Source of the DNA: Halogeometricum borinquense DSM 11551 | GTDB lineage: Archaea > Halobacteriota > Halobacteria > Halobacteriales > Haloferacaceae | NCBI RefSeq assembly: GCF_000172995.2 | Contig: NC_014729.1 | Location: forward strand, 750,001-782,000 | Reading direction: 5' to 3' | Length of the DNA stretch: 32,000 nucleotides | Program-made: the position numbers and the translations under genes | Part shown: positions 1 to 25,784 of the stretch, one piece after another | Layout: every line of letters starts with the position of its first letter | Position numbering within the stretch: position 1 is the stretch's first letter | The notes under the pieces: model-generated | What the model saw: only the letters and a program-made list of their open reading frames with translations | Told to the model about the DNA's origin: nothing | Database searches by the model: none

Positions 1-1455
1 GGTTTCGTCGGTGTCGGCGTCGTACTCGTCGGCATTGGCGTCGCCTCGCGGATCGGCGTCCTCGACACGAAACCCGACCGGACGGCGGGCGCACTTCCCG
101 CAGCCCTCTTCGGACTGATCGGGTTTGTCGTTGGGAGTCTTATCGGCTCCAGCACGCTCGGCTTCTCGACGTTCTGGCCGGTGTTCGGCATCGTTGGTGG
201 CGTTTCCCTCGCGGCCGCGGCACTCCTTCCCCGTGAGGATCTCGGCGTGACTATTCCTGCTGGTGGACTCGCGCTGTTCGGCGGGCTCACGTTCCTTACC
301 GGTCTCATCACGCCGTCGTGGACGTGGGAGCCCATAGCCGGATCGGCGACGTACACTGGTACGTTCGTTATCCCGTTCCTTGCTCTCTTCTTGGGCCTCC
401 TCACAGCGTGGGTCGGTGCCGAAGCCTACGGCGGATTCGGGACTCGCGGGCGTCAAATGGGTGCTTATCTCCTCATCGGTGCGAACGCAGTTGGGATGCT
501 CTCACTTCTCGTCATCCTTGTTGCGTTCGTCGTCAGTAAGGGATTCGCCCCGATGACTCGCGGGATCCGGTTCGGTCTGTTCTGGGAGCCGCTGACGTGG
601 TTCTACTTCCCGCCAATCGACAAATACGTCGTTATCGAAGGGCCGTTAGTGTGGTTCTACTGGCCGTTCGTGATGGAGGGCGTCGCGCTGATGACCGAGA
701 TCAACGGTATTTTCCCGGCAATCGTCGGCACGGTCTGGGTCGTCTTCGGCGCTGTCGTCTTCGCGATTCCACTCGGCGTCGGTGCGGCGGTTTTCCTGAC
801 CGAGTACGCCGAACGCGGGTGGTTCACTAAACTTGTCGAAATTTCAACCGATGGGTTGTGGAGTACGCCCAGTATCGTTTACGGGCTGTTCGGGCTGGCG
901 TTCCTCGTTCCCCGTCTCGGGAACACCACGTCGCTGCTCTCTGGAATGCTCGTTCTCGGCTTCATGATGCTTCCACTGGTGGTTATCACCAGCCGGGAGG
1001 CGCTCAAGAGCGTTCCTGACGACTACCGCGACGCCAGCGCTGCGCTCGGTGTCGGGAAATGGGAGACGATAAAAAGCGTCGTCCTCCCCGCCGCGATGCC
1101 CGGTGTTATCACCGGTGCCATCCTCGGTATTGGACGTATCGCGGGCGAGACGGCGCCGATCCTGCTCGTGATGGTCAGCGATCCGTTCCCCTCGCGTGCG
1201 ACAGATGTCTTCGCACCGGAGTTCGCCTTCGTCTCGGACTTCCCGTTCGTCCACGCACAAGTGATTGATCCGAATGCGTTGCTACAACCGACGAGTGCGC
1301 TCCCATACCAACTGTACGCGATAATTACAGCAGGTGTCGGCCAACGTGAATCGTTCGCGTGGGGGACGGCACTTGTGCTTCTCTTGGTCGTCTTGAGTTT
1401 CTACGTGGTCGGTATTGGCTCACGGATGTACTTCCGACGGAAGCTAGAACAATGA
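1..1455 (+). CDS. pstA: Phosphate ABC transporter permease PstA (5' end outside window)
   Basis: Frame 1 is open from nt 1, with no stop before the GTG at 181 that the ORF track uses. The product is a multi-TM protein with the ABC permease EAA-like region ([20 protein letters not shown]) and the tail [11 protein letters not shown]. It sits directly upstream of pstB with an ATGA overlap. Confidence 0.85.
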
Positions 1456-2553: not shown

Positions 2554-3231
2554 ATGCCCCGAGAACAGTATCAGGACGCACTTGAGTCGCTCCGCGACGA
2601 CGTTCTCTACATGAGCGAAGTCGTCGCAGAGCGACTTCGAATGGGTCTGGATGCACTCGAACAGAAAGACGACCAGCTCGCAGAGGAGGTAATCGAGGGC
2701 GACGGCGAGATCAACCGAATGTATCTCGACCTCGAACAGGACTGCATCGACCTCATCGCGCTCCAGCAACCGGTTGCCTCGGACCTGCGTTTCATCGCCG
2801 CCTCGTTCAAGATCATCACGGATCTCGAACGAATCGGCGACTTGGCGACGAACCTTGCAAACTACGCAACTGAGGCGCAACGAGACGTGTTCCCCGAAGT
2901 CGATATTCAGCAGATCGGTGACGGAACGCTGGAAATGCTCGACAAGTCGATGGACGCGTACGCAGAAGAGAACCCCGAACTGTGTCGTGCTGTTGCCACT
3001 CAGGATGACGACATCGACGCGATGTGTGAGGCCGCAAGCGAGATGGTCGTCAGAGACCTGATCGAGACCGACCCGTTCGGTGAAGAAGACCGCGACGCAG
3101 AGGCCTATCTGTCTGATATCTCTCGGCTTCTCTTGACGGTTCGTGACCTCGAACGCGTCGGCGACCACGCTGTGAATATCGCCGCACGAGCGCTCTATAT
3201 GGTCGAAGACGACGACGAACTGCTCTACTAG
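2554..3231 (+). CDS. phoU: Phosphate uptake regulator PhoU
   Basis: Two PhoU repeats are visible (DLIALQQPVASDLRFIAASFKIITDLERIGDLATNLA and LLLTVRDLERVGDHAVNIA). The ORF opens at a GTG at 2542, but the ATG at 2554 fits the TATA spacing better. Confidence 0.9.
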   Translation: MPREQYQDALESLRDDVLYMSEVVAERLRMGLDALEQKDDQLAEEVIEGDGEINRMYLDLEQDCIDLIALQQPVASDLRFIAASFKIITDLERIGDLATNLANYATEAQRDVFPEVDIQQIGDGTLEMLDKSMDAYAEENPELCRAVATQDDDIDAMCEAASEMVVRDLIETDPFGEEDRDAEAYLSDISRLLLTVRDLERVGDHAVNIAARALYMVEDDDELLY

Positions 3232-6083: not shown

Positions 6084-7694
6084 ATGCGTACACTTGCGTT
6101 CGACGGACGAATGGGTGCTAGTGGTGACATGATTCTCGCGTCGCTTCTCGCCGCCGGTGCCGACCGGGATGCACTGGCCCCTGTCGAGAACGCTCTCGAT
6201 GTTCACTACGATGTCTCGACGGTGGTCAAAAACGGGATCTCCGCTCGTCGCGTTCGTGTCCGCTTGGATGATACTGCCGGCGGCGGCGAGGGAGCGAACG
6301 ACGGACACGACGCTGACGGGGGCCACGAGCACGCGCACGAACACGGAGATCATAGCCACGGTCACGAACACCATCACCACGCACACGACCACTCCCACGG
6401 TGAAGGCCACACGCACGACCACTCTCACGGCGCAGGCCACACGCACGACCACTCTCACGGCGCAGGCCACACGCACGACCACTCTCACGGCGCAGGCCAC
6501 ACGCACGACCACTCTCACGGCGCAGGCCACACGCACGACCACTCTCACGGCGCAGGCCACACGCACGACCACTCTCACGGCGCAGGCCACACGCACGACC
6601 ACTCTCACGGCGCAGGCCACACGCACGACCACTCTCACGGGGACCACACCGAACACCCCCACGACGATGATCATGCACACGAGACACCCGCTGAGGGACA
6701 CGGTCCGCACCGCGCGTACGCAGAAGTAGTCGAGATAGTCGAGTCGATGGGCTTGCCGAACGGCGTCGAACGGGACGCGAAAGCTATTTTCCGGATTCTC
6801 GGCGAGGCGGAAGCAGCGGTCCACGGCACCGAGTTGGATGAGACGCATTTCCACGAAGTCGGCGCAGACGACGCCATCGCGGACATCGTCGGCGCGTGTC
6901 TCCTCCTCGCTGACCTCGACGTCGAACGCGTCGTCACGTCGCCTCTTTCGACCGGCGGCGGCGAGCAGTCGATGGCGCACGGTACGTATCCAGTTCCGAC
7001 GCCCGCTGTCGTCGAAATCGCCCAGCGCGCCGACTGGTCGTTGAAAGGTGGTCCCGTCGAGGCGGAACTGTTGACGCCGACGGGCGCGGCAATTCTCGCG
7101 CACGTCGCCGAAGGCGTCGAGTCGCTCCCGACGCTCGAAATCGATGCCTCGGGGTACGGCGCGGGCGGATACGACTTTCCGGACCACCCGAACGTCCTGC
7201 GAACGCTCGTCGGCGACGGTGCGGGCCGTCTCATCCGCGACGAGATAACCGTCTTGGAGACGAACCTCGATGATGCCGCGCCGGAACTCCTCGGCGGTCT
7301 CCAATCGACGTTGAAAGACGTGGGCGCGCGCGACGTGACTATCCTTCCGGCGACGATGAAGAAGTCCCGACCCGGACATCTCGTCAAAGTCATCGTCAAA
7401 CCGGAGGACGCCGAACGCGTCGCGAACCGCCTCGCTGTCGAGACGGGAACGCTCGGCATCCGAGAACACGGTGCCGGACACCGATGGACCGCATCTAGAC
7501 GATTCGAGACAGCCGAACTCGAAATCGAGGACGAGAGACACGAGGTGGCGGTGAAAGTCGCGTCCGATGCCGAGGGAGCGGTGTACGATTACAGCGCCGA
7601 GTTCGATGAGGCTCAGGCCGTCGCCGACGAAACGGGCCTGCCAATCCGTGAGGTCATGCGACGCGCGGAGAACATCGTCGCAGGCGACGACTGA
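6084..7694 (+). CDS. larC: LarC-family nickel insertion protein (DUF111) with an expanded His-rich insert
   Basis: The N-terminus MRTLAFDGRMGASGDMILASLLAAG matches the LarC/DUF111 start motif. The remainder (HFHEVGADDAIADIVG, LSTGGG, TPTGAAIL, TMKKSRPGH) also fits the family. The His-rich tract lies at the position where LarC proteins carry one. Confidence 0.85.
   Translation: MRTLAFDGRMGASGDMILASLLAAGADRDALAPVENALDVHYDVSTVVKNGISARRVRVRLDDTAGGGEGANDGHDADGGHEHAHEHGDHSHGHEHHHHAHDHSHGEGHTHDHSHGAGHTHDHSHGAGHTHDHSHGAGHTHDHSHGAGHTHDHSHGAGHTHDHSHGAGHTHDHSHGAGHTHDHSHGDHTEHPHDDDHAHETPAEGHGPHRAYAEVVEIVESMGLPNGVERDAKAIFRILGEAEAAVHGTELDETHFHEVGADDAIADIVGACLLLADLDVERVVTSPLSTGGGEQSMAHGTYPVPTPAVVEIAQRADWSLKGGPVEAELLTPTGAAILAHVAEGVESLPTLEIDASGYGAGGYDFPDHPNVLRTLVGDGAGRLIRDEITVLETNLDDAAPELLGGLQSTLKDVGARDVTILPATMKKSRPGHLVKVIVKPEDAERVANRLAVETGTLGIREHGAGHRWTASRRFETAELEIEDERHEVAVKVASDAEGAVYDYSAEFDEAQAVADETGLPIREVMRRAENIVAGDD
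6391..6650 (+). repeat. 30-bp in-frame tandem repeat inside larC
   Basis: The unit actctcacggcgcaggccacacgcacgacc occurs 7 times without a single mismatch (6421-6630). It is flanked by one diverged copy (6391-6420) and one partial copy. It encodes (HDHSHGAGHT)n. Confidence 0.97.
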
Positions 7695-16139: not shown

Positions 16140-16420
16140 TTCTGACTTTACTGCGGAGATAGGCCCCGTTATTTCGAGATAGGAACAGCTGCGGGCTCTC
16201 TTTTGTGTTGGTCGGAACACTATGACATCCTCCTCGCCGTTCACGGCGAGGTTTCCTCGCGCTGGGGTATCGTTTACCGACCCACGGAGGCAACTTGCGG
16301 GTTCGTATGCTCCTCGTTGGGACGGGGAGAGCGTGATGACTCCAACCATTCGTGGTTGTCCCACTTGAGGCATACAGGCCGTGCCATCGACCGTGTTACC
16401 GTCGTCTGCCGTTGACGAGA
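16140..16420 (-). ncRNA. Predicted TnpB guide RNA (omega/reRNA) scaffold region
   Basis: By analogy with characterised TnpB systems, the guide RNA overlaps the 3' end of tnpB and the IS right end. Downstream of the stop the minus strand has mutually exclusive hairpins GCGAGG-AAA-CCTCGC and CCTCGCCG-TGAA-CGGCGAGG. Boundaries are inferred, not seen. Confidence 0.3.
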
Positions 16421-17608
16421 CACAGAGTGTCTCGTTCGCCAATCAGAACTCAGAGAGTTCTGATGACGTCTCAAGAACGTCTCTGACGCCACGAGGTCAG
16501 CGTGCCCCTCGAAGCCACACGGACACGTCAGCGTATCTCTGTGGCGCGTCGTCTCCTCTGTCGAACCACAGTTGGGACACTCCTGACTCGTCCACGCCTC
16601 CGACCGAACCTCTACCGACATACCGTATTCCTTGGCGGTACACGCCACCCGGTTCACGAACGCCCTGAACGCCCAGAAATTGTGCGTTTTCGCGTTCGTC
16701 TCTACCGACCAGTGCGTTTCCAACACGTCAGTTAACGCCCCAACGTACACCGTCGAAACGCCTTCATCGTAGAGGCGTTCGATGAGGTCACGGGCGAGTG
16801 CGTCTTGGGCGTGGTCACGTCGCTTGGTACGTCGGTCGTACAGGCGTCGGATTCGGTGACTGCTGTATCGACCTTCCTCCAACAGTGATTGGAGTCGGGC
16901 GATTTCTCGTGTCGTCTCGCGGAACCTGTCGAACAGGTCACGTCCTTCGTACAATAGTTGTTGACCGGTTGTGGTTGTGCAGGCGACGAGGTTGTTCGCA
17001 CCAATATCCAGAGCGGCTTCTTCCGAAGCCAGTGGTTGTGCCAGTCGAGAATCATCGACGGTGACTGGCTGAAAGGCCCTGAACGATTGTGCTTGCTCGT
17101 CGTAGAACAACTCCAATCGACCCTGCTTCTCATACTCCGTCCAGTTCGGGTCGCCCCGAACTTCGAGCCGGAGGCGTTCGCGGTGTCCCAACCCGTACTC
17201 GTCTTTCAGGTCTTTGCCGACGAGGATTTCGAGCCGGGAGTATTCACCCCACTCGACCGAGTACGACGTGTTTCGGATGTACGTGCGGAGTTCTCGACCT
17301 TCGTCTGCGTTGCCCCAGTATCCGGGTTTTCCGTTGGCTTCGCCTTTCTTCCTAAGGCTGAAGAACGACTTCCACGCTTCGCGGTTCTTGCGCTCGATTT
17401 GCTGAACCGTGGACGCCCCGAGAACACCGCCGTAGCGACCACGATACTCGCTGATGTCCCACACGTCTCCGTCTGGGTCAGCATAGTGTTCGCGGCGCTC
17501 GTAGTTGATTTCGTTCCAGAGAGCGGCAGAAGCGTCCAACAGGCGTCGAAGCAACTCCTCGTCCTCGTCGGACAGAGGAACCACCTCGAACGTGTTGGCT
17601 CGCTTCAT
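16274..17608 (-). CDS. tnpB: TnpB (IS1341-type, RNA-guided nuclease family, OrfB)
   Basis: The 444-aa product has RuvC-I in [11 protein letters not shown], a zinc finger CPNCG...CPCG, and RuvC-III in [11 protein letters not shown]. The N-terminal [39 protein letters not shown] is typical OrfB_IS605. The RuvC-II glutamate is not obvious by eye ([11 protein letters not shown]). Confidence 0.9.
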
Positions 17609-17633
17609 CGACTACTGATTGCATCGGAACACA

Positions 17634-17640
17634 CATAAAG
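17634..17640. promoter_or_regulatory. Single A/T box (CATAAAG / CTTTATG) placed to serve both tnpB and the divergent RHH ORF
   Basis: This is the only A/T-rich element in the 53-nt gap. It lies 26-32 nt from the tnpB ATG (17608, minus strand) and 22-28 nt from the ATG at 17662 (plus strand). Confidence 0.4.
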
Positions 17641-17661
17641 ATGTGGTTTGTGTGCTACTAT

Positions 17662-17799
17662 ATGGTCGAAGTTCGCATCGAGTTCGATGACGACGAGCAG
17701 TACGAGCGACTGAAGGAACTGAAGAAACACCGTGGATTGACGTGGAAGGGGTTGCTCCTCGAAGGCGAGAAGAAAGTCAGGGAGGATACCCCGGAGTAA
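17662..17799 (+). CDS. Small ribbon-helix-helix (CopG/Arc-like) protein, 45 aa (52 aa if started at 17641)
   Basis: I translated it by hand: MVEVRIEFDDDEQYERLKELKKHRGLTWKGLLLEGEKKVREDTPE. The pattern is a beta-strand (VEVRIEF), helix 1, a G-x-T turn and helix 2, and the composition is acidic. It is too short for the supplied ORF track. Confidence 0.5.
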   Translation: MVEVRIEFDDDEQYERLKELKKHRGLTWKGLLLEGEKKVREDTPE

Positions 17800-17923
17800 G
17801 CGGCGAACGTGGGTTGTGCCGTAGAGTGTCGGATTCACGCCCGCCGTAAACGTCGGGACTCTCTCCTTGATTCAGGTAGCCGAGATATTGGCTGAGTTCG
17901 TGTCGAATGTGCTGGGCGTGCGA

Positions 17924-18925: not shown

Positions 18926-19105
18926 AGACCGGAGTTTTCATGAAACTGAACTTGAATTTTTTGAAATTTGTCTCGACACGAGCAAGGAACACGGGGAAGG
19001 GTTAATTGTATACCGGACAGGCGGCGTGGTACACGACTCGAAACCATGGAAGTCAGACTCGTAATGCGATTTCCACTCCGTCGGGCGCGGCAAACATATC
19101 AATGA

Positions 19106-19179
19106 TGCGAGGGGGGCTCGAACCCCACTCGTAACAAGTTGCTCGCTGGTTCGAATCCTTGGCTACCACACACCCTCGC
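19106..19179 (-). pseudogene. tRNA-like element that does not fold into a canonical cloverleaf (probable tRNA fragment mosaic)
   Basis: The minus strand reads GCGAGGG...GGGGTTCGAGCCCCCCTCGCA, with a tRNA-Leu-like acceptor and T-loop. The T-stem/acceptor register is short by C residues, and no anticodon arm could be drawn. An oppositely oriented GGTTCGAATCC T-arm fragment lies inside it. Confidence 0.35.
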
Positions 19180-19229
19180 ACGAGTGCGAGAGACACGGAG
19201 GTCTCTCGCGGTGATGTGCTCGGTAGAAG

Positions 19230-19325
19230 TGGGTTGGGGCGGATTCGAACGCCGGCGAACTCCCTTCGGTCGTCCGCTGCTTCCCGCCTCGCTCCGCTCG
19301 GCGGGAACGCCGGCCTGCTCCGTGT
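19230..19325 (-). pseudogene. Duplicate of the 3' half of tRNA-Val(CAC), interrupted by a 58-bp insertion
   Basis: Segments 19230-19256 and 19305-19325 together reproduce the last 39 nt of the intact tRNA-Val, apart from one missing C. A 10-bp direct repeat GAACGCCGGC (19247-19256 and 19305-19314) flanks the insert. No 5' half is present. Confidence 0.75.
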
Positions 19326-19349
19326 CCTTCACGAGGATGGAAAAACGAG

Positions 19350-19424
19350 TGGGTTGGGGCGGATTCGAACCGCCGGCCTGCTCCGTGTGAAGGAGCCGTC
19401 ATAACCTGGCTAGACCACCAACCC
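19350..19424 (-). tRNA. tRNA-Val (anticodon CAC)
   Basis: I folded the 75-nt cloverleaf by hand. The acceptor is GGGUUGG/CCAACCC. The anticodon stem is GCUCC/GGAGC with loop UUCACAC. The T-arm is GGCGG-UUCGAAU-CCGCC. A T5 run follows the 3' end. Confidence 0.9.
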
Positions 19425-19453
19425 AGGCAAAAATTTCTTTCCTCGGGTGAGAC

Positions 19454-19459
19454 TTAAGC
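19454..19459 (-). promoter_or_regulatory. TATA-like box (CTTAAG) for tRNA-Val
   Basis: It lies about 30 nt upstream of tRNA position 1 on the minus strand. Confidence 0.4.
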
Positions 19460-19473
19460 GTTCTTCTTCGGTC

Positions 19474-20963: not shown

Positions 20964-23900
20964 CTACGACCGCCGCCACGCCAGTGTCACGACTACGAAC
21001 AGGCTCAGGATGGCCGCGAGCGGTCCAAATCCTGGAACGCCGGTTTCCGTTTCGGTCGGTGTCGCGGTTGGCGTCGCGGTCGGTGTCTGAGTTGCCGTCG
21101 GCGTCGGGCGCTCAGTCGGCGTCGGCTCGGTCACGCCAACGGTGCCTGCGGTTTGGTTCCCGACGCTGAGGTTGTACGTCCCGACTTCGTCGAACTGTAC
21201 GGTGAACCTCTCCGTCTCTGAGTCGCCAGCCCCGAGCGTCACGCGCCGCGTATCGGTCGTCGCATTGTCCACGGCGAGCGAGACGTATCCAGTCGCCGCT
21301 CGCGTCCCGTCGTTGGTCACTCCCGCTGAAACAGTGACTGTCTCTCCGGGTCGAATGCGCCGTTCACCGACGCTTGCGTTCGTCACCGCGACCCGGCCGC
21401 CGGACTCGCGGCCGACGGCGAACGTTGACAGTCCGGGCGTGTCGGCGTTGTAGACGTACGTCTCCTCTCGTTTCTCGACGAGGATTGCGTTCAATTCCGT
21501 CCACGTTCCGTCGTGATATCGGTAGAGAGCCACTTGATCCGGCGAAACGTTCCGCTCGTGCAGACGTTCCTCGTGTACGCCGAAGCGGAAGACCGCGTAG
21601 TCGATATCGCGGTCCGAGACGGAGTGGTCTACCTGCAAGTATCCGACCGTCTGCTCGTTGGGTGATGTCACGTTCGCGTCGATGGTAGCGTTCGGCGCGT
21701 CGTCGTGAACCGTAGCCTGTACCGAATACGTCTCGTTCTGTGACGCAATCGAGAGCGTGTCGAGGCTGACGTTCTTCGATTCGCTCGTTGTGTTCAGCGG
21801 AAGATCTACCAGTGACGACGGCTGTGCGGACTCCACGCGAACTGAAGATCCGTTTCGACCGGTCCGTTCGACGGAGACGTTCGCTCGCGGCGGTTCGGAG
21901 TCGTTGGCGTCGGTCTCGGATTCCGGGTCTGGTTCGATCACGACGATTTGTTCTTCGTCGCCACCGCCGCCTCCCCCACCGCCACCGCCGTTCGCGTCCG
22001 AACGTGATCCGTTCAGAGAGATCGTTGCCGATTGTCCGGACGCACCGTCGTTCCCGTTCGCGTCCGCGAGACGTGCCAGCGTCACCGTTACTGACCCATT
22101 CGATCCCACCGCGTGCGACGTCTCGTAGCTCGTCCCGCTCACCGAGAAGTCTGTCTCGTCGAGTGTCGCATTCGCCGACCCGGTCAGCGTGACGTTCACG
22201 TCGTTCAGCGTCTCCGAAGCGTCGAAGGCGATATCGACCGACGAGTCCGATCCCGCGGAGACGGAGAAATTCGAGACCGTCGGCGGGGTGTCGAGGGTGA
22301 GCGTTCCGGTCTGGGCTGACCGTTTGTTTCCAACGGTGTCCGTCGTCGTGACCGGGACCGACCGGTCGCCGTCGGCCGCAGTCGCGTCGAAGTCTACGGT
22401 GAGTGTCGCCGTGTAGGTCCCGTCGGAGTCGCCGTCAGCAATCGAGACCGCACTTCCGGAACCGAATGCACTCCCATCGACCGTCACCGACCCGATGCCT
22501 GCAGCGTCACTCACCGTCGCTGAGATATCTATCTGGTCGCCCGGCGCGACGACGCCGTCGCCGTCTGTCGCGTCAGTGAACGTCAGGCCGGTGACCGACG
22601 GCCCGGTCGTATCGAGCGTCAGCGACCCCGTCGTTCCGCTTCCGACCGTCCCCCGGTCGTCACTAGCTTGAATGGGTGCCGAGACGCTCCCGTCTGCGGA
22701 CGCGTTCGACTCGTCCACTGCGACCGTCGCGTTCCATGTGCCATCGTCATCACCGTCCGTCAACGTGACCGTTCCAGCTCCGATGGCCGAGAGGTCGGTC
22801 GTTACTGTCGCCACGCCGTTCGCGTCGGTCGCTGTCGCCTCCACAGTGACGTTCTCACCATCCGTGAGGACGCCGTCACCCGTCTCGTCCGTAAGCGTCG
22901 GACTCGATACGGTCGGACCAGTCGTGTCGAGCGTTAGCGATCCCGTCGTCCCGCTTCGGACGTTCCCCGCGCCGTCCGTCACATCGACGGCCACGCTGTA
23001 GTCGCCGTCGGGGTCCGCGTTCGCACCGTTTACGGTGACCGTCTTCGACCAATCGCCGCCGGTATCGGTGAGGGTGACGACGCCAGCACCGAACGCCGAG
23101 AGGTCGGCCGTCACCGACTGCACACCCGCAGTGCTATCCGTCGCTGTCGCGGACACGGTCACAGATTCGCCGTCAGCGACGATGCTGTCTCCGTCGGCGT
23201 CGTCTGTGACGCCCACTGAGGAGAGTGTTGGTTTCGCCGTGTCGAGGGTCAGCGTCTCGGTCGTAACGACGCTTGTCTGACCGGCCTCGTCGCTGACAGT
23301 AACGGACCCACCGTGCGAGCCGTCGGGATCCGCATTCGCGGCGTCAACGGAGACAGTCACATCCCACGTTCCGTCCGAGTCGCCGTCGGCCAAGGTGACG
23401 GTTCCGGCGCCGAACGCCGAGAGGTCGGCTTCGACGGTGCGAACCTCGCTTCCGGTTCCGTCGGGTGTGACGGAGACAGTGAGATCCTCGCCGCCCGCCA
23501 CGTAGCTATCAGCATCACTGTCGCTCAGTGAGAGCCCTGATGTTGATGGTGTGACAGTGTCGAGGGTGAGCGTTCCGACCGTCGTCTGATTTGTCTTCCC
23601 TTGACTGTCGGCGGCCTCGACAGAAACGGAGTGCTCTCCGTCCGCAACACCCGACGCGTCCACGACGAACGTACCGTTGTACACGTCCGAACTCCCGACT
23701 TGCGAGAGACTGACTGCACTGCCGCCGCCGAGTTCGGTTGCGTCCGCAGTGACAGTATCAACTGTCGTCGCGTCGGTCACGGTCAGTTCGACTGTCACCG
23801 TCTCTTCGTCCGCGACGACACCGTCACCGTCGGTGCCTGTGAGACTCCCGGCCGAAAGCGTCGGCGGGTTCACGTCCTGCGTCAACTCGTTCGTCGTCGC

Positions 23901-25784
23901 CGAGTTGGCGTTCCCGAGGTCGTCCGTCGCTTCGACGGTGAGACTGTAGTTGCCGTCGCCCGCGGCGTTGGTCCCGTTAACCGTGAACGACGTCTCGTAG
24001 GTGTCGCCGCCGACGTTCGAGAGCGTCTCGGTTCCGACGCCGAAATCTGATGCGTCCGTCGTCACTGCGGTGATTCCAGTCGTGTCCGTCACCGTCGCGG
24101 AGACAACGACTGTGTCGCCGTCGCGGACGACGCTCATGCCGCCGCTCCCGTTTCTGAGCGTCAGCGATGAGAGACTTGGACCGCTCGTATCAACGCTGAG
24201 CGTCCCTGTCTCTGTCGAGGCGGTGTTTCCCTCGTCGTCTGTCGCCGTCACCGAGGCGAGTTGGTCTCCCTCGGTCGGCGACTGACCGACCGCCGTCGTC
24301 AGGTTCCACGTGGACCCATCGGACGAGGTGAGTGAGACGGAACTCCCCAGATCGAACGCCGAGAGATCGGCCGTGACCGACTGCACACCGCTCGTGTCGT
24401 CGGACACTGTCGCTTCGACGGTTATCTCGTCTCCGTCGGTCACGTTCCCGTCGGCGTCTCCGTCAGTGAGTGAGAGAGGACTAATATCCGGCCCGGTCGT
24501 ATCCACAACGACTGTTTCGGATTCACTGCTTGCACCGTCTTTTCCGGTTCCGTCCGCGGCTTCATCGAGCGTGAACGTGTACGTCCCGTCGGTCGGCGCG
24601 TTGTACGTCGCCTCGTACGTGTACGGGGCCGACCCATCGGCCGTCGAGAACGCTGCCTCCGTAACTGTCGTCGAATCCGCTCCCGAGACGCTCACCGTGA
24701 TGTTCCCGAGCGTTTCGTCGCTGTCGAACGAGAGGCCGACCGACTGCCCCGAGGAGTTATCGACCGCAAACGATGTGATATTAGGATCCGTGTTCAGTGT
24801 CAGCGTCTCGACGGTCGTCTGATTCACGTTTCCGGCCGCGTCGCGTACGCGGACAGTTACCGGGTAGTCACCGTCGGTCGTCCCTCCTTCCGAGACGGTT
24901 ATCGTGGCGTTGTACACGCTTGATTCCGTTTCGTTCGTCAGCGATTCCGACGTACCTGCACCGAAATCCGAGAGGTCGGCCGTCACTGACTCTATCGCCG
25001 TCGTCGCGTCCGCCACATCTACCTCAACAGTCACTGTCTCGCCAGCATCGACGGTCCCGTCGTCGCCTGCTTCGGAGAGCGTCGTTGACGAGTACGTGGG
25101 CGCATTCGTGTCGAGACGAAGTGACGGCGAGTCGGTCCGATTGGTGTTACTCTGATTGTCGGCGGCGACGATGGTAACGTTCGTCTCCCCGTCAGCGGGA
25201 ACGCTTCCGCCGACGGTGAACGTCGCCGCGTAGGTGTCACCGTTCGTGAGAGAGAGCGAAACGGTTCCAGCACCGAAGTCAGACGCGTCGGCTTCGACAG
25301 ACTGCACGCTCGCTGTCGCGTCTACGACGTCGGCCCTGACGCGGACGGTGTCGTCCGAGGCGACGATTCCGTCTCCGTCCGAATCGTCCAGCAACTGCAC
25401 GTTCGTCACCGACGGTTCGGTGGTGTCTACGTACGCGCTATCGTTCAGTGAACTCTCTTTGACGAACTCGCCGGTGTAGTAGCCGTCACGACTCACGTTC
25501 GTCGTCGTCTCGTAGTGATACCCGCCGGAGATATTGGTTTCAGTGAACGTGTCGGCACCCAACACCTGATCGGAATCACCGTTTCGGTAGAGTAAAATAT
25601 CGAAGTCAGACAGTTGCTGTGTCGAGTCGAACGAGACGGTCAAGTTCTGCCCCTCAGGGTTCGAGATAGTGAAGTTTGATTGCTCCCCGCTGGCCGCCTC
25701 TGCGACTCCCGGACCGACTGCCGCCGCGGCCGCCAAAATCATGACTGCAACTGTGACGAGAGTAACGGAGACCCCTCGCGTCAC
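20964..25784 (-). CDS. Giant (1606 aa) repeat-built cell-surface glycoprotein/adhesin with PGF-pre-PGF, CARDB-like and PGF-CTERM domains
   Basis: It has a signal peptide (MTRGVSVTLVTVAVMILAAAAAVGPGVAEA). It contains nine modules of about 105 aa starting DTxxP and three modules of a second type. A Gly9 run follows. The PGF-pre-PGF-like block is VGYLQVDH...YRYHDGTWTEL...TPGLSTFAVG. The C-terminus has a TPT-rich linker and GVPGFGPLAAILSLFVVVTLAWRRS. NxS/T sequons are numerous. Confidence 0.9.
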   Translation of the reverse strand: MTRGVSVTLVTVAVMILAAAAAVGPGVAEAASGEQSNFTISNPEGQNLTVSFDSTQQLSDFDILLYRNGDSDQVLGADTFTETNISGGYHYETTTNVSRDGYYTGEFVKESSLNDSAYVDTTEPSVTNVQLLDDSDGDGIVASDDTVRVRADVVDATASVQSVEADASDFGAGTVSLSLTNGDTYAATFTVGGSVPADGETNVTIVAADNQSNTNRTDSPSLRLDTNAPTYSSTTLSEAGDDGTVDAGETVTVEVDVADATTAIESVTADLSDFGAGTSESLTNETESSVYNATITVSEGGTTDGDYPVTVRVRDAAGNVNQTTVETLTLNTDPNITSFAVDNSSGQSVGLSFDSDETLGNITVSVSGADSTTVTEAAFSTADGSAPYTYEATYNAPTDGTYTFTLDEAADGTGKDGASSESETVVVDTTGPDISPLSLTDGDADGNVTDGDEITVEATVSDDTSGVQSVTADLSAFDLGSSVSLTSSDGSTWNLTTAVGQSPTEGDQLASVTATDDEGNTASTETGTLSVDTSGPSLSSLTLRNGSGGMSVVRDGDTVVVSATVTDTTGITAVTTDASDFGVGTETLSNVGGDTYETSFTVNGTNAAGDGNYSLTVEATDDLGNANSATTNELTQDVNPPTLSAGSLTGTDGDGVVADEETVTVELTVTDATTVDTVTADATELGGGSAVSLSQVGSSDVYNGTFVVDASGVADGEHSVSVEAADSQGKTNQTTVGTLTLDTVTPSTSGLSLSDSDADSYVAGGEDLTVSVTPDGTGSEVRTVEADLSAFGAGTVTLADGDSDGTWDVTVSVDAANADPDGSHGGSVTVSDEAGQTSVVTTETLTLDTAKPTLSSVGVTDDADGDSIVADGESVTVSATATDSTAGVQSVTADLSAFGAGVVTLTDTGGDWSKTVTVNGANADPDGDYSVAVDVTDGAGNVRSGTTGSLTLDTTGPTVSSPTLTDETGDGVLTDGENVTVEATATDANGVATVTTDLSAIGAGTVTLTDGDDDGTWNATVAVDESNASADGSVSAPIQASDDRGTVGSGTTGSLTLDTTGPSVTGLTFTDATDGDGVVAPGDQIDISATVSDAAGIGSVTVDGSAFGSGSAVSIADGDSDGTYTATLTVDFDATAADGDRSVPVTTTDTVGNKRSAQTGTLTLDTPPTVSNFSVSAGSDSSVDIAFDASETLNDVNVTLTGSANATLDETDFSVSGTSYETSHAVGSNGSVTVTLARLADANGNDGASGQSATISLNGSRSDANGGGGGGGGGGDEEQIVVIEPDPESETDANDSEPPRANVSVERTGRNGSSVRVESAQPSSLVDLPLNTTSESKNVSLDTLSIASQNETYSVQATVHDDAPNATIDANVTSPNEQTVGYLQVDHSVSDRDIDYAVFRFGVHEERLHERNVSPDQVALYRYHDGTWTELNAILVEKREETYVYNADTPGLSTFAVGRESGGRVAVTNASVGERRIRPGETVTVSAGVTNDGTRAATGYVSLAVDNATTDTRRVTLGAGDSETERFTVQFDEVGTYNLSVGNQTAGTVGVTEPTPTERPTPTATQTPTATPTATPTETETGVPGFGPLAAILSLFVVVTLAWRRS
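22301..25427 (-). repeat. Array of diverged modules of about 315 bp (Ig-like repeats) within the giant surface protein gene
   Basis: The consensus DT(T/S)GP(S/T)xSxxxLTDxxGDGxVxxGExVTVxAxVxDxxxGVxSVTADLSAFGAGxVTL...GxxxTGxLTL recurs nine times. Coordinates were derived from amino-acid positions and are approximate. Confidence 0.8.

Follow-up and report, generated by a model that had tools for sequence, protein, structure and literature searches.

[quoted passage not shown] Bacterial cis-mobilizable elements (CIMEs), described for the ICESt1 family, have lost the integrase, keep both attL and attR, and undergo tandem accretion, in which an incoming element integrates next to them (PMC5704250). 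The tandem islands at the ssrA 3' end of Dehalococcoides may be a further example of accretion (PMC3146451).

The stretch of DNA analysed here (hereafter, the window) comprises 32,000 nucleotides of the chromosome of Halogeometricum borinquense DSM 11551; all coordinates refer to it. As at tRNA attachment sites used by tyrosine integrases, direct repeats of the 3' part of a tRNA-Val(CAC) gene occur downstream of the intact gene. The boundaries of these repeats lie at the T-loop (a 23-nt core) and in the anticodon loop (a 39-nt copy), which corresponds to two of the three sublocations reportedly distinguished by Williams in 2002, namely the anticodon stem-loop, the T stem-loop and the 3' end. 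Unlike at the usual site of this kind, the repeats are stacked, with only about 100 bp of gene-less DNA between them, and the integrase gene expected beside the repeat is located not in the window but in five related loci from metagenome contigs (L024, L025, L028, L030 and L033). The module in one of these related loci, L030, resembles that of SNJ2 in having a homologous integrase and a core that corresponds to a tRNA 3' end, here that of tRNA-Val. It differs from SNJ2 in that the core is 23 nt long, belongs to tRNA-Val, and precedes the integrase start by 100-250 nt, with the gene on the other strand. Like CIMEs, the units described below keep core copies at both ends, contain no integrase and are arranged in tandem at the 3' end of the target gene; the position of the L030 integrase element directly beside two such units also parallels CIME accretion. 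In contrast to CIMEs, which span kilobases and carry genes, these units are archaeal, about 120 bp long and gene-less, and their mobilization is hypothesised.

ARAGORN and the Rfam tRNA model (62.1 bits) identified tRNA-Val(CAC) at 19350-19424 on the minus strand, with the boundary placed at 19349 or 19350. The sequence of this gene is identical in all H. borinquense strains compared. The core repeat B1, GTTCGAATCCGCCCCAACCCACT (19348-19370, minus strand), lies inside and just past the gene. It starts at the last base of the T-stem 5' strand, immediately before the T-loop, and extends to two bases beyond the discriminator. The same 23 nt are repeated exactly and in direct orientation at 19228-19250 (core copy B2, minus strand, 100% identical to B1). 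A further 18 nt of the gene, ACACGGAGCAGGCCGGCG (19371-19388), are repeated exactly at 19308-19325 on the minus strand. This piece, A', covers the tRNA from the anticodon loop to the T-stem 5' strand, so that the 39-nt copy begins within the anticodon loop. Comparable matches were absent from shuffled sequence, and the exact 23-nt and 18-nt repeats are therefore not due to chance. The initial annotation of this DNA had reported an intact tRNA-Val(CAC) with its 3' part again downstream, and the two tRNA predictions and the exact repeats agree with this. The 24-nt spacer (19326-19349) and the single base missing from the second copy are also as described there, and we likewise found the direct repeat of 10 bp (19247-19256 and 19305-19314) as well as the hairpin TTCCCGCC...GGCGGGAA (19281-19307).

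The intergenic region behind tRNA-Val was aligned from seven sources. Two H. borinquense genomes, RZHH01000002 (L002) and CP048739 (L007), lack exactly 120 bp, corresponding to 19228-19347 in the window, and the limits of this presence/absence difference coincide with the 23-nt repeat. In both genomes TCTACCGAG stands immediately behind the tRNA; in the window, it comes after core copy B2. A single unit, here called unit 1 or the y-type unit (minus strand, gene-less), is therefore made up of the spacer, the interrupted copy and its core. The earlier observation of a second copy behind a spacer thus holds, but its anatomy has to be redrawn as a single 120-bp unit bounded by the 23-nt repeat.

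Unit 1 consists of a spacer x, the tRNA piece A', an interior with two hairpins, and the core copy B2, which we regard as a displaced tRNA-Val 3' end. Spacer x (CGTTTTTCCATCCTCGTGAAGG, 19326-19347, minus strand) was read from the sequence and contains a run of five T residues (19341-19345) directly after tRNA-Val; the two genomes without unit 1 have no T-run in this position. The spacer differs between hosts, while the remainder of the unit is conserved. The interior (19251-19307, minus strand), which was delimited by fold and sequence and corresponds to the 58-bp insert of the initial annotation, holds hairpin a (19281-19307, loop GAGCGGAGCGA) and hairpin b (19255-19277, loop GACCGAAGGGA). 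From the strain alignment, we read the order of the locus as tRNA, unit 1, unit 2, where each unit ends in a tRNA-Val 3' end. Unit interiors, with core copies at both ends, measure 97-101 nt and contain no gene; they are too short to encode an integrase or a transfer gene.

Alignment of the units revealed that the 3' half of the unit 1 interior aligns with the neighbouring unit type. The segment GGCGGGAAGCAGCGGACGACCGAAGGGAG of unit 1 in the window matches GGATCCGAACCAGCGAGCGACCGAAGGGAG in unit 2 of H. pallidum, and the motif GAGCGGAGCGAGG is common to the unit 1 interior and H. limi. The 58-bp piece is thus the interior of a unit and not a foreign insertion. The suggestion that it might be a separate miniature element or an intron was abandoned in view of this homology and of the similarity to an integrase-proximal arm described below.

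Two explanations take the insert as something other than a unit interior. The interrupted copy could be part of an intron-containing or split tRNA-Val, or an attP-type intron carrier as proposed for Thermoproteales; an insert that interrupts the T-arm of a 39-nt tRNA copy, exact apart from it, would fit such an origin, and intron transfer via intron-containing attP sites has been proposed for Archaea (Sugahara et al. 2012, cited in PMC8371274). We consider this extremely improbable. No tRNA 5' half is present anywhere nearby, the functional gene lacks the insert in every locus seen, and inspection of the junctions revealed no 4-bp central helix; a bulge-helix-bulge motif would require pairing between the T-loop bases and the four bases that follow the 5' junction, which are not complementary. 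The ARAGORN intron search gave no result for the extra elements or for the integrase-linked loci. ARAGORN with a relaxed threshold and the Rfam tRNA model (E up to 10) found the intact gene only, at odds with the intron-like insert proposed initially. Lowering the ARAGORN threshold to 80% produced junk calls, one of them within a coding region.

The second explanation does without an integrase: tandem duplication or slippage would have produced the copies, and an unrelated MITE-like sequence of 58 bp would then have inserted with a 10-bp target duplication. The 10-bp direct repeat on either side of the insert is what such an event would leave, and a TnpB insertion sequence is indeed present elsewhere in the window. 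This scenario is nonetheless very unlikely. The sequence after the second copy does not repeat the spacer, so that a simple tandem duplication does not apply. Classification of the insert as a MITE or an IS-derived element was rejected: the direct repeat is not accompanied by terminal inverted repeats, and no dispersed copies of the A' and core pieces exist in the rest of the window. In metagenome contigs recovered through the core, the y-type interior is always directly beside the core, and the boundaries of the units match the T-loop and the integrase-linked sites of other genomes.

Unit 2, the z-type unit, has a length of about 125 bp. Its interior (19127-19227, minus strand) contains the hairpin GCGAGAGAC/GTCTCTCGC (19186-19209) and a conserved block (19141-19173), within which a T-loop in reverse orientation (19148-19158) is located. 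This hairpin, the reversed T-loop and an acceptor-like pair, GCGAGGG/CCCTCGC, had all been noted before and are present, but the reading of the acceptor-like part as 'Leu-like' tRNA debris was not upheld by the strain alignment. The terminal core copy B3* (19106-19126, minus strand) has been overwritten to GGGGTTCGAGCCCCCCTCGCA, which forms the 'Leu-like' 3' end. At the same position, L002 has an intact tRNA-Val 3' copy, GGGGTTCGAATCCGCCCCAACCCA, which carries three changes in L007. Some 45 nt around it (19088-19132) were replaced in the lineage of DSM 11551: this patch differs at many positions from L002 and L007, and the sequences on either side are nearly identical. The piece is accordingly the end of a second unit, in which the tRNA-Val copy has been overwritten. 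As a result of the replacement, the former tRNA-Val 3' copy can form 8 bp with GCGAGGG upstream. A 'Leu-like' cloverleaf was called solely at the 80% ARAGORN threshold, alongside obvious junk, and was discarded. The possibility that the z-type unit is a decayed full tRNA-Val gene was discarded as well; its 5' part aligns with the tRNA 5' half no better than shuffled sequences do.

Homologues of the z-type unit occur after tRNA-Val in H. limi, H. pallidum and many metagenome contigs. They are more diverged than the y-type units, with a mean column identity of 64%. The stems of the first z-type hairpin vary from unit to unit, while its loop, CGAGCG(N)AGCGAGG, is conserved. In the second hairpin, the 5' strand is the reverse T-loop and the 3' strand is the T-loop of the next core; all 11 of the units compared have this hairpin, and H. 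limi shows one double compensatory change in it. A scan of the genome collection with the z block matched the tRNA-Val loci of H. limi and H. pallidum and no others, which indicates that the block is not dispersed. No z block was seen beside an integrase among the loci sampled; all occurrences were at tRNA-Val loci. The pattern used in the scan fits the window sequence, yet the genome collection gave no match for H. borinquense. The representative of this species may be masked at the site or may differ there.

Upstream of tRNA-Val, H. borinquense, H. limi, H. pallidum and a metagenomic Halogeometricum have the same genes in the same order (glutaredoxin, PduO-type adenosyltransferase, DUF7553); the genes downstream differ in each of these species. 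The break in gene order is located exactly at the 3' side of tRNA-Val. Extra core copies in direct orientation are present in all Halogeometricum species compared, including three cores at a spacing of 123 nt in H. pallidum. In most related loci, the 21-nt core recurs 118-140 nt downstream of tRNA-Val; the distance in H. limi is 170 nt. Metagenome contigs were also scanned for the core outside a tRNA context, which yielded 17 loci. One of these (L029) is a tRNA-Tyr gene with the same 3' end. In nine of the 17, tRNA-Val(CAC) is accompanied by one unit of 118-140 nt with the core at its end; a further unit adjoins directly in two of these nine. One or two such units accompany nearly every sampled haloarchaeal tRNA-Val(CAC) gene with this 3' end. 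No tRNA-Val follows the DUF7553 gene in L022. The order of unit types varies between species, and the outer core copies are degenerate in several lineages.

Units of the type of unit 1 were identified in the metagenomic Halogeometricum (L016) and in three distant haloarchaea (L027, L039 and L030). The conserved part, a 72-nt y module, extends from 19318 through the interior to 19247, so that it includes the final 11 nt of A' and ends immediately before the T-loop. It is 92-97% identical in five contexts (the window, L016, L027, L039 and L030) and is almost as conserved across genera as the tRNA itself. The DUF7553 proteins of the hosts, in comparison, are 48-59% identical to the 89-aa DUF7553 protein of the window, which is itself 100% identical to that recorded for H. 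borinquense DSM 11551. Neither the 39-nt copy nor the 21-nt core nor a 21-nt piece of the insert had an exact match among IMG/VR viral contigs. When the whole region was compared by BLASTN with PLSDB plasmids and INPHARED phages, only unrelated tRNA genes were retrieved, with neither the y module nor the core among the matches.

The core is linked to integrase genes in the five metagenome contigs named above. In all of them it is located upstream of the integrase start codon, at a distance of roughly 100-250 nt and on the opposite strand. The integrase genes are divergently oriented and encode proteins with Phage_integrase and SAM-like domains. The comparison with virus records covered the integrase from L030, which shares 35-40% identity across its entire length with the integrases of HRPV-9, HHPV-4, SNJ2, Halfgib1 and others (35.7% identity over 99% of the length and an E value of 4e-65 for SNJ2). 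The gene adjoining the L030 integrase has a weak match to primases. In the same contig, the integrase and the core are followed by at least two near-identical tandem copies of unit 1 (6330-6590, minus strand), the last core being truncated. This is the clearest case of an element beside such small units.

L033 was also compared with another contig, L034. The order in L033 is integrase, arm, core and flank, and that in L034 is tRNA-Val, unit, core and flank, followed by nos genes. The flanks of the two are nearly identical, and the similarity ends exactly at the 5' edge of the core. As judged from these contigs, this break is a population-level signature of site-specific insertion at the core. 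In the L033 arm, ACACGGAGCAGG..GGCGTTC, which lacks the same G, precedes a hairpin with the loop GAGCnnnGCGA, and the core comes next; this is the layout of A', insert and B2 in the window. In L024, too, the integrase adjoins an A'-like piece, with GGCGTTC and a hairpin behind it. By eye, an apparently decayed full-length tRNA-Val with a recognisable 5' half can be made out in the arms of L024 (about 2960-3070) and L033 (about 107-300, minus strand). This suggests that elements of the L024/L033 type may once have captured a whole tRNA gene.

The core beside five integrases, the edge shared by L033 and L034, the strain polymorphism of unit 1 and the break in gene order at the 3' side of the tRNA all point to the reading that the initial annotation had offered for the duplicated tRNA 3' ends. 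With a probability of roughly 70%, the locus represents tRNA-Val attachment-site remnants of integrase-encoding elements, at a site used repeatedly. The ORFs examined in the window and the gene calls of the region include no integrase, and the 32-kb window contains no distant att partner; integration is therefore not directly evident in DSM 11551. Three further points speak against this reading: the y module and the core had no match in the phage, plasmid and viral collections searched, the z block occurred at tRNA-Val loci but never beside an integrase, and the core precedes the integrase start instead of following the integrase 3' end as in the SNJ2 family. We infer integration in this lineage, as well as the exact crossover point, from the comparisons above. 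Whole elements would have been reduced to about 100 bp.

The following course of events is proposed. The 23-nt 3' core of tRNA-Val(CAC) would serve as the attachment site for a family of haloarchaeal tyrosine-integrase elements. Recombination at the core would rebuild the tRNA with a 3' end and a terminator supplied by the element, and the previous 3' end would be pushed downstream along with the integrase-proximal arm of the element. Oligo-T stretches end transcription in archaea. A T-run that belongs to unit 1 and is missing where the unit is missing would be expected if the terminator came from the element side. DSM 11551 would have kept two integrase-less units, of 120 bp and about 125 bp, each composed of arm-like hairpins and a displaced 3' end. 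Recombination between the flanking core copies could lead to loss or gain of a unit, as in the strains without unit 1. The outermost copy would be the oldest one and would be decaying or overwritten; degenerate outer core copies are what outward displacement of older copies predicts.

The uniform interiors of about 100 bp and the conservation of the y module between genera argue against purely passive scars. At 92-97% identity beside a DUF7553 protein of about 50%, the module is more conserved than passively decaying scars should be. This leaves room for hitch-hiking with helper elements or for a function in the host.

According to the first of these possibilities, the units of about 120 bp would be miniature integrase-less cassettes with att cores that move by hitch-hiking on a helper. 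An adjacent helper element would excise via a more distant core copy and take the unit to a new host. The units would then be a small archaeal equivalent of bacterial CIMEs. In addition to the contrast between the y module and the neighbouring protein, such a route would account for the uniform unit size (118-140 nt), the presence or absence of unit 1 among strains, the changing order of unit types between species, the L030 arrangement of an integrase, a core and at least two near-identical tandem y-type units, and hairpins whose stems differ while the loop motif is retained. No free or element-borne copy was found in the virus and plasmid collections searched (INPHARED, PLSDB and IMG/VR), however, and a 120-bp circle on its own is mechanically unlikely. 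Allelic recombination among haloarchaea, together with selection on the arms of parent elements, could also give the observed pattern. We regard hitch-hiking as possible but doubtful. It is with the same reserve that the units might be called the smallest known integrase-less integrative cassettes, spreading between haloarchaeal genera on SNJ2-like elements. Such cassettes would, equally tentatively, hold only arm hairpins with the conserved loops GAGCGGAGCGA and GACCGAAGGGA, bounded by the tRNA-Val core. If this were the case, the loops would mark the arm-binding sites of integrases or of their accessory proteins, and units mobilized in trans would represent a new size class of integrative element.

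The second possibility is that selection in the host maintains the units as a structured RNA or DNA feature that the host itself encodes at the tRNA-Val locus. Such a feature might be a trailer involved in termination or processing, a small RNA with complementarity to the T-loop, or a set of decoy att sites that shield the tRNA. The occurrence of units at the tRNA-Val locus in many genera, the second hairpin in all 11 z-type units with its double compensatory change, and the origin of the sole T-run after the tRNA from unit 1 could all be understood in this way. Several units also fold better than shuffled controls (z -2.8 to -4.7), but unit 1 is not among them (z -0.27, no better than shuffled sequence). 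Unit 1 is, moreover, dispensable in two strains, and the outer core copy gathers changes or is replaced. The covariation in the second hairpin is minimal, because one of its strands is the tRNA-derived core. A role in the host is thus unlikely to be the main explanation of the units.

Integration into tRNA genes is well known, and the locus is ordinary in that respect. Less ordinary are the uniform, gene-less units of 120 bp that are stacked behind one tRNA across many haloarchaeal genera; no description of att remnants in such a compact, conserved and stacked form was found in the literature searched. The conserved hairpin loops are candidate arm sites of SNJ2-type integrases, whose site requirements remain poorly defined. 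For annotation purposes, these pieces should be taken neither as tRNA pseudogenes of another amino-acid identity nor as introns.

The tRNA-Val locus had also been proposed to mark the right edge of an accessory block at 12.8-19.4 kb. Gene order does change between species at the tRNA, and this break is real, but the comparison did not corroborate an island with its edge at the site. The genes at 12.8-19.4 kb code for glycosyltransferases, a DUF7827 protein and an HTH regulator. Each of the H. borinquense genomes and longer contigs that were recovered and extend this far contains the block, and the gene order in AOHT01000006 is the same as in the window. No integrase, second core or clear shift in composition indicates a boundary near 12.8 kb, and a search for an att partner near 12.8 kb with up to 6 mismatches gave nothing beyond chance-level matches. 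Since the block is shared by all of these genomes and contigs and is associated with neither an integrase nor a partner site in the window, no island bounded by the tRNA-Val site is established. Its variable part is limited to the TnpB insertion sequence. This element of the IS200/IS605 type is about 1.65 kb long (16222-17875) and contains a TnpB ORF on the minus strand (16274-17608) with OrfB_IS605 and Cas12f1-like TNB domains. It is present in the window, in AOHT01000006 and in RZHH01000002, where it is 99.7% identical though no gene was called; in CP048739 it is absent and about 138 bp stand in its place.

The motif (A/C)C(C/G)(C/T)TTAAGTC is located some 30-35 nt upstream of tRNA-Val (19440-19470 in the window). 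It is kept in every sampled haloarchaeal locus with an upstream DUF7553 gene, with the rest of the spacer diverged, and occurs at the same position in L012, L014, L016, L026, L027, L038 and L039. This motif is probably the promoter of the tRNA gene. An ORF of 1606 aa near the locus (20964-25784, minus strand) has only faint matches to Big_13 and DUF4625; its called start varies between strains, resulting in proteins of 1592, 1605 or 1606 aa.
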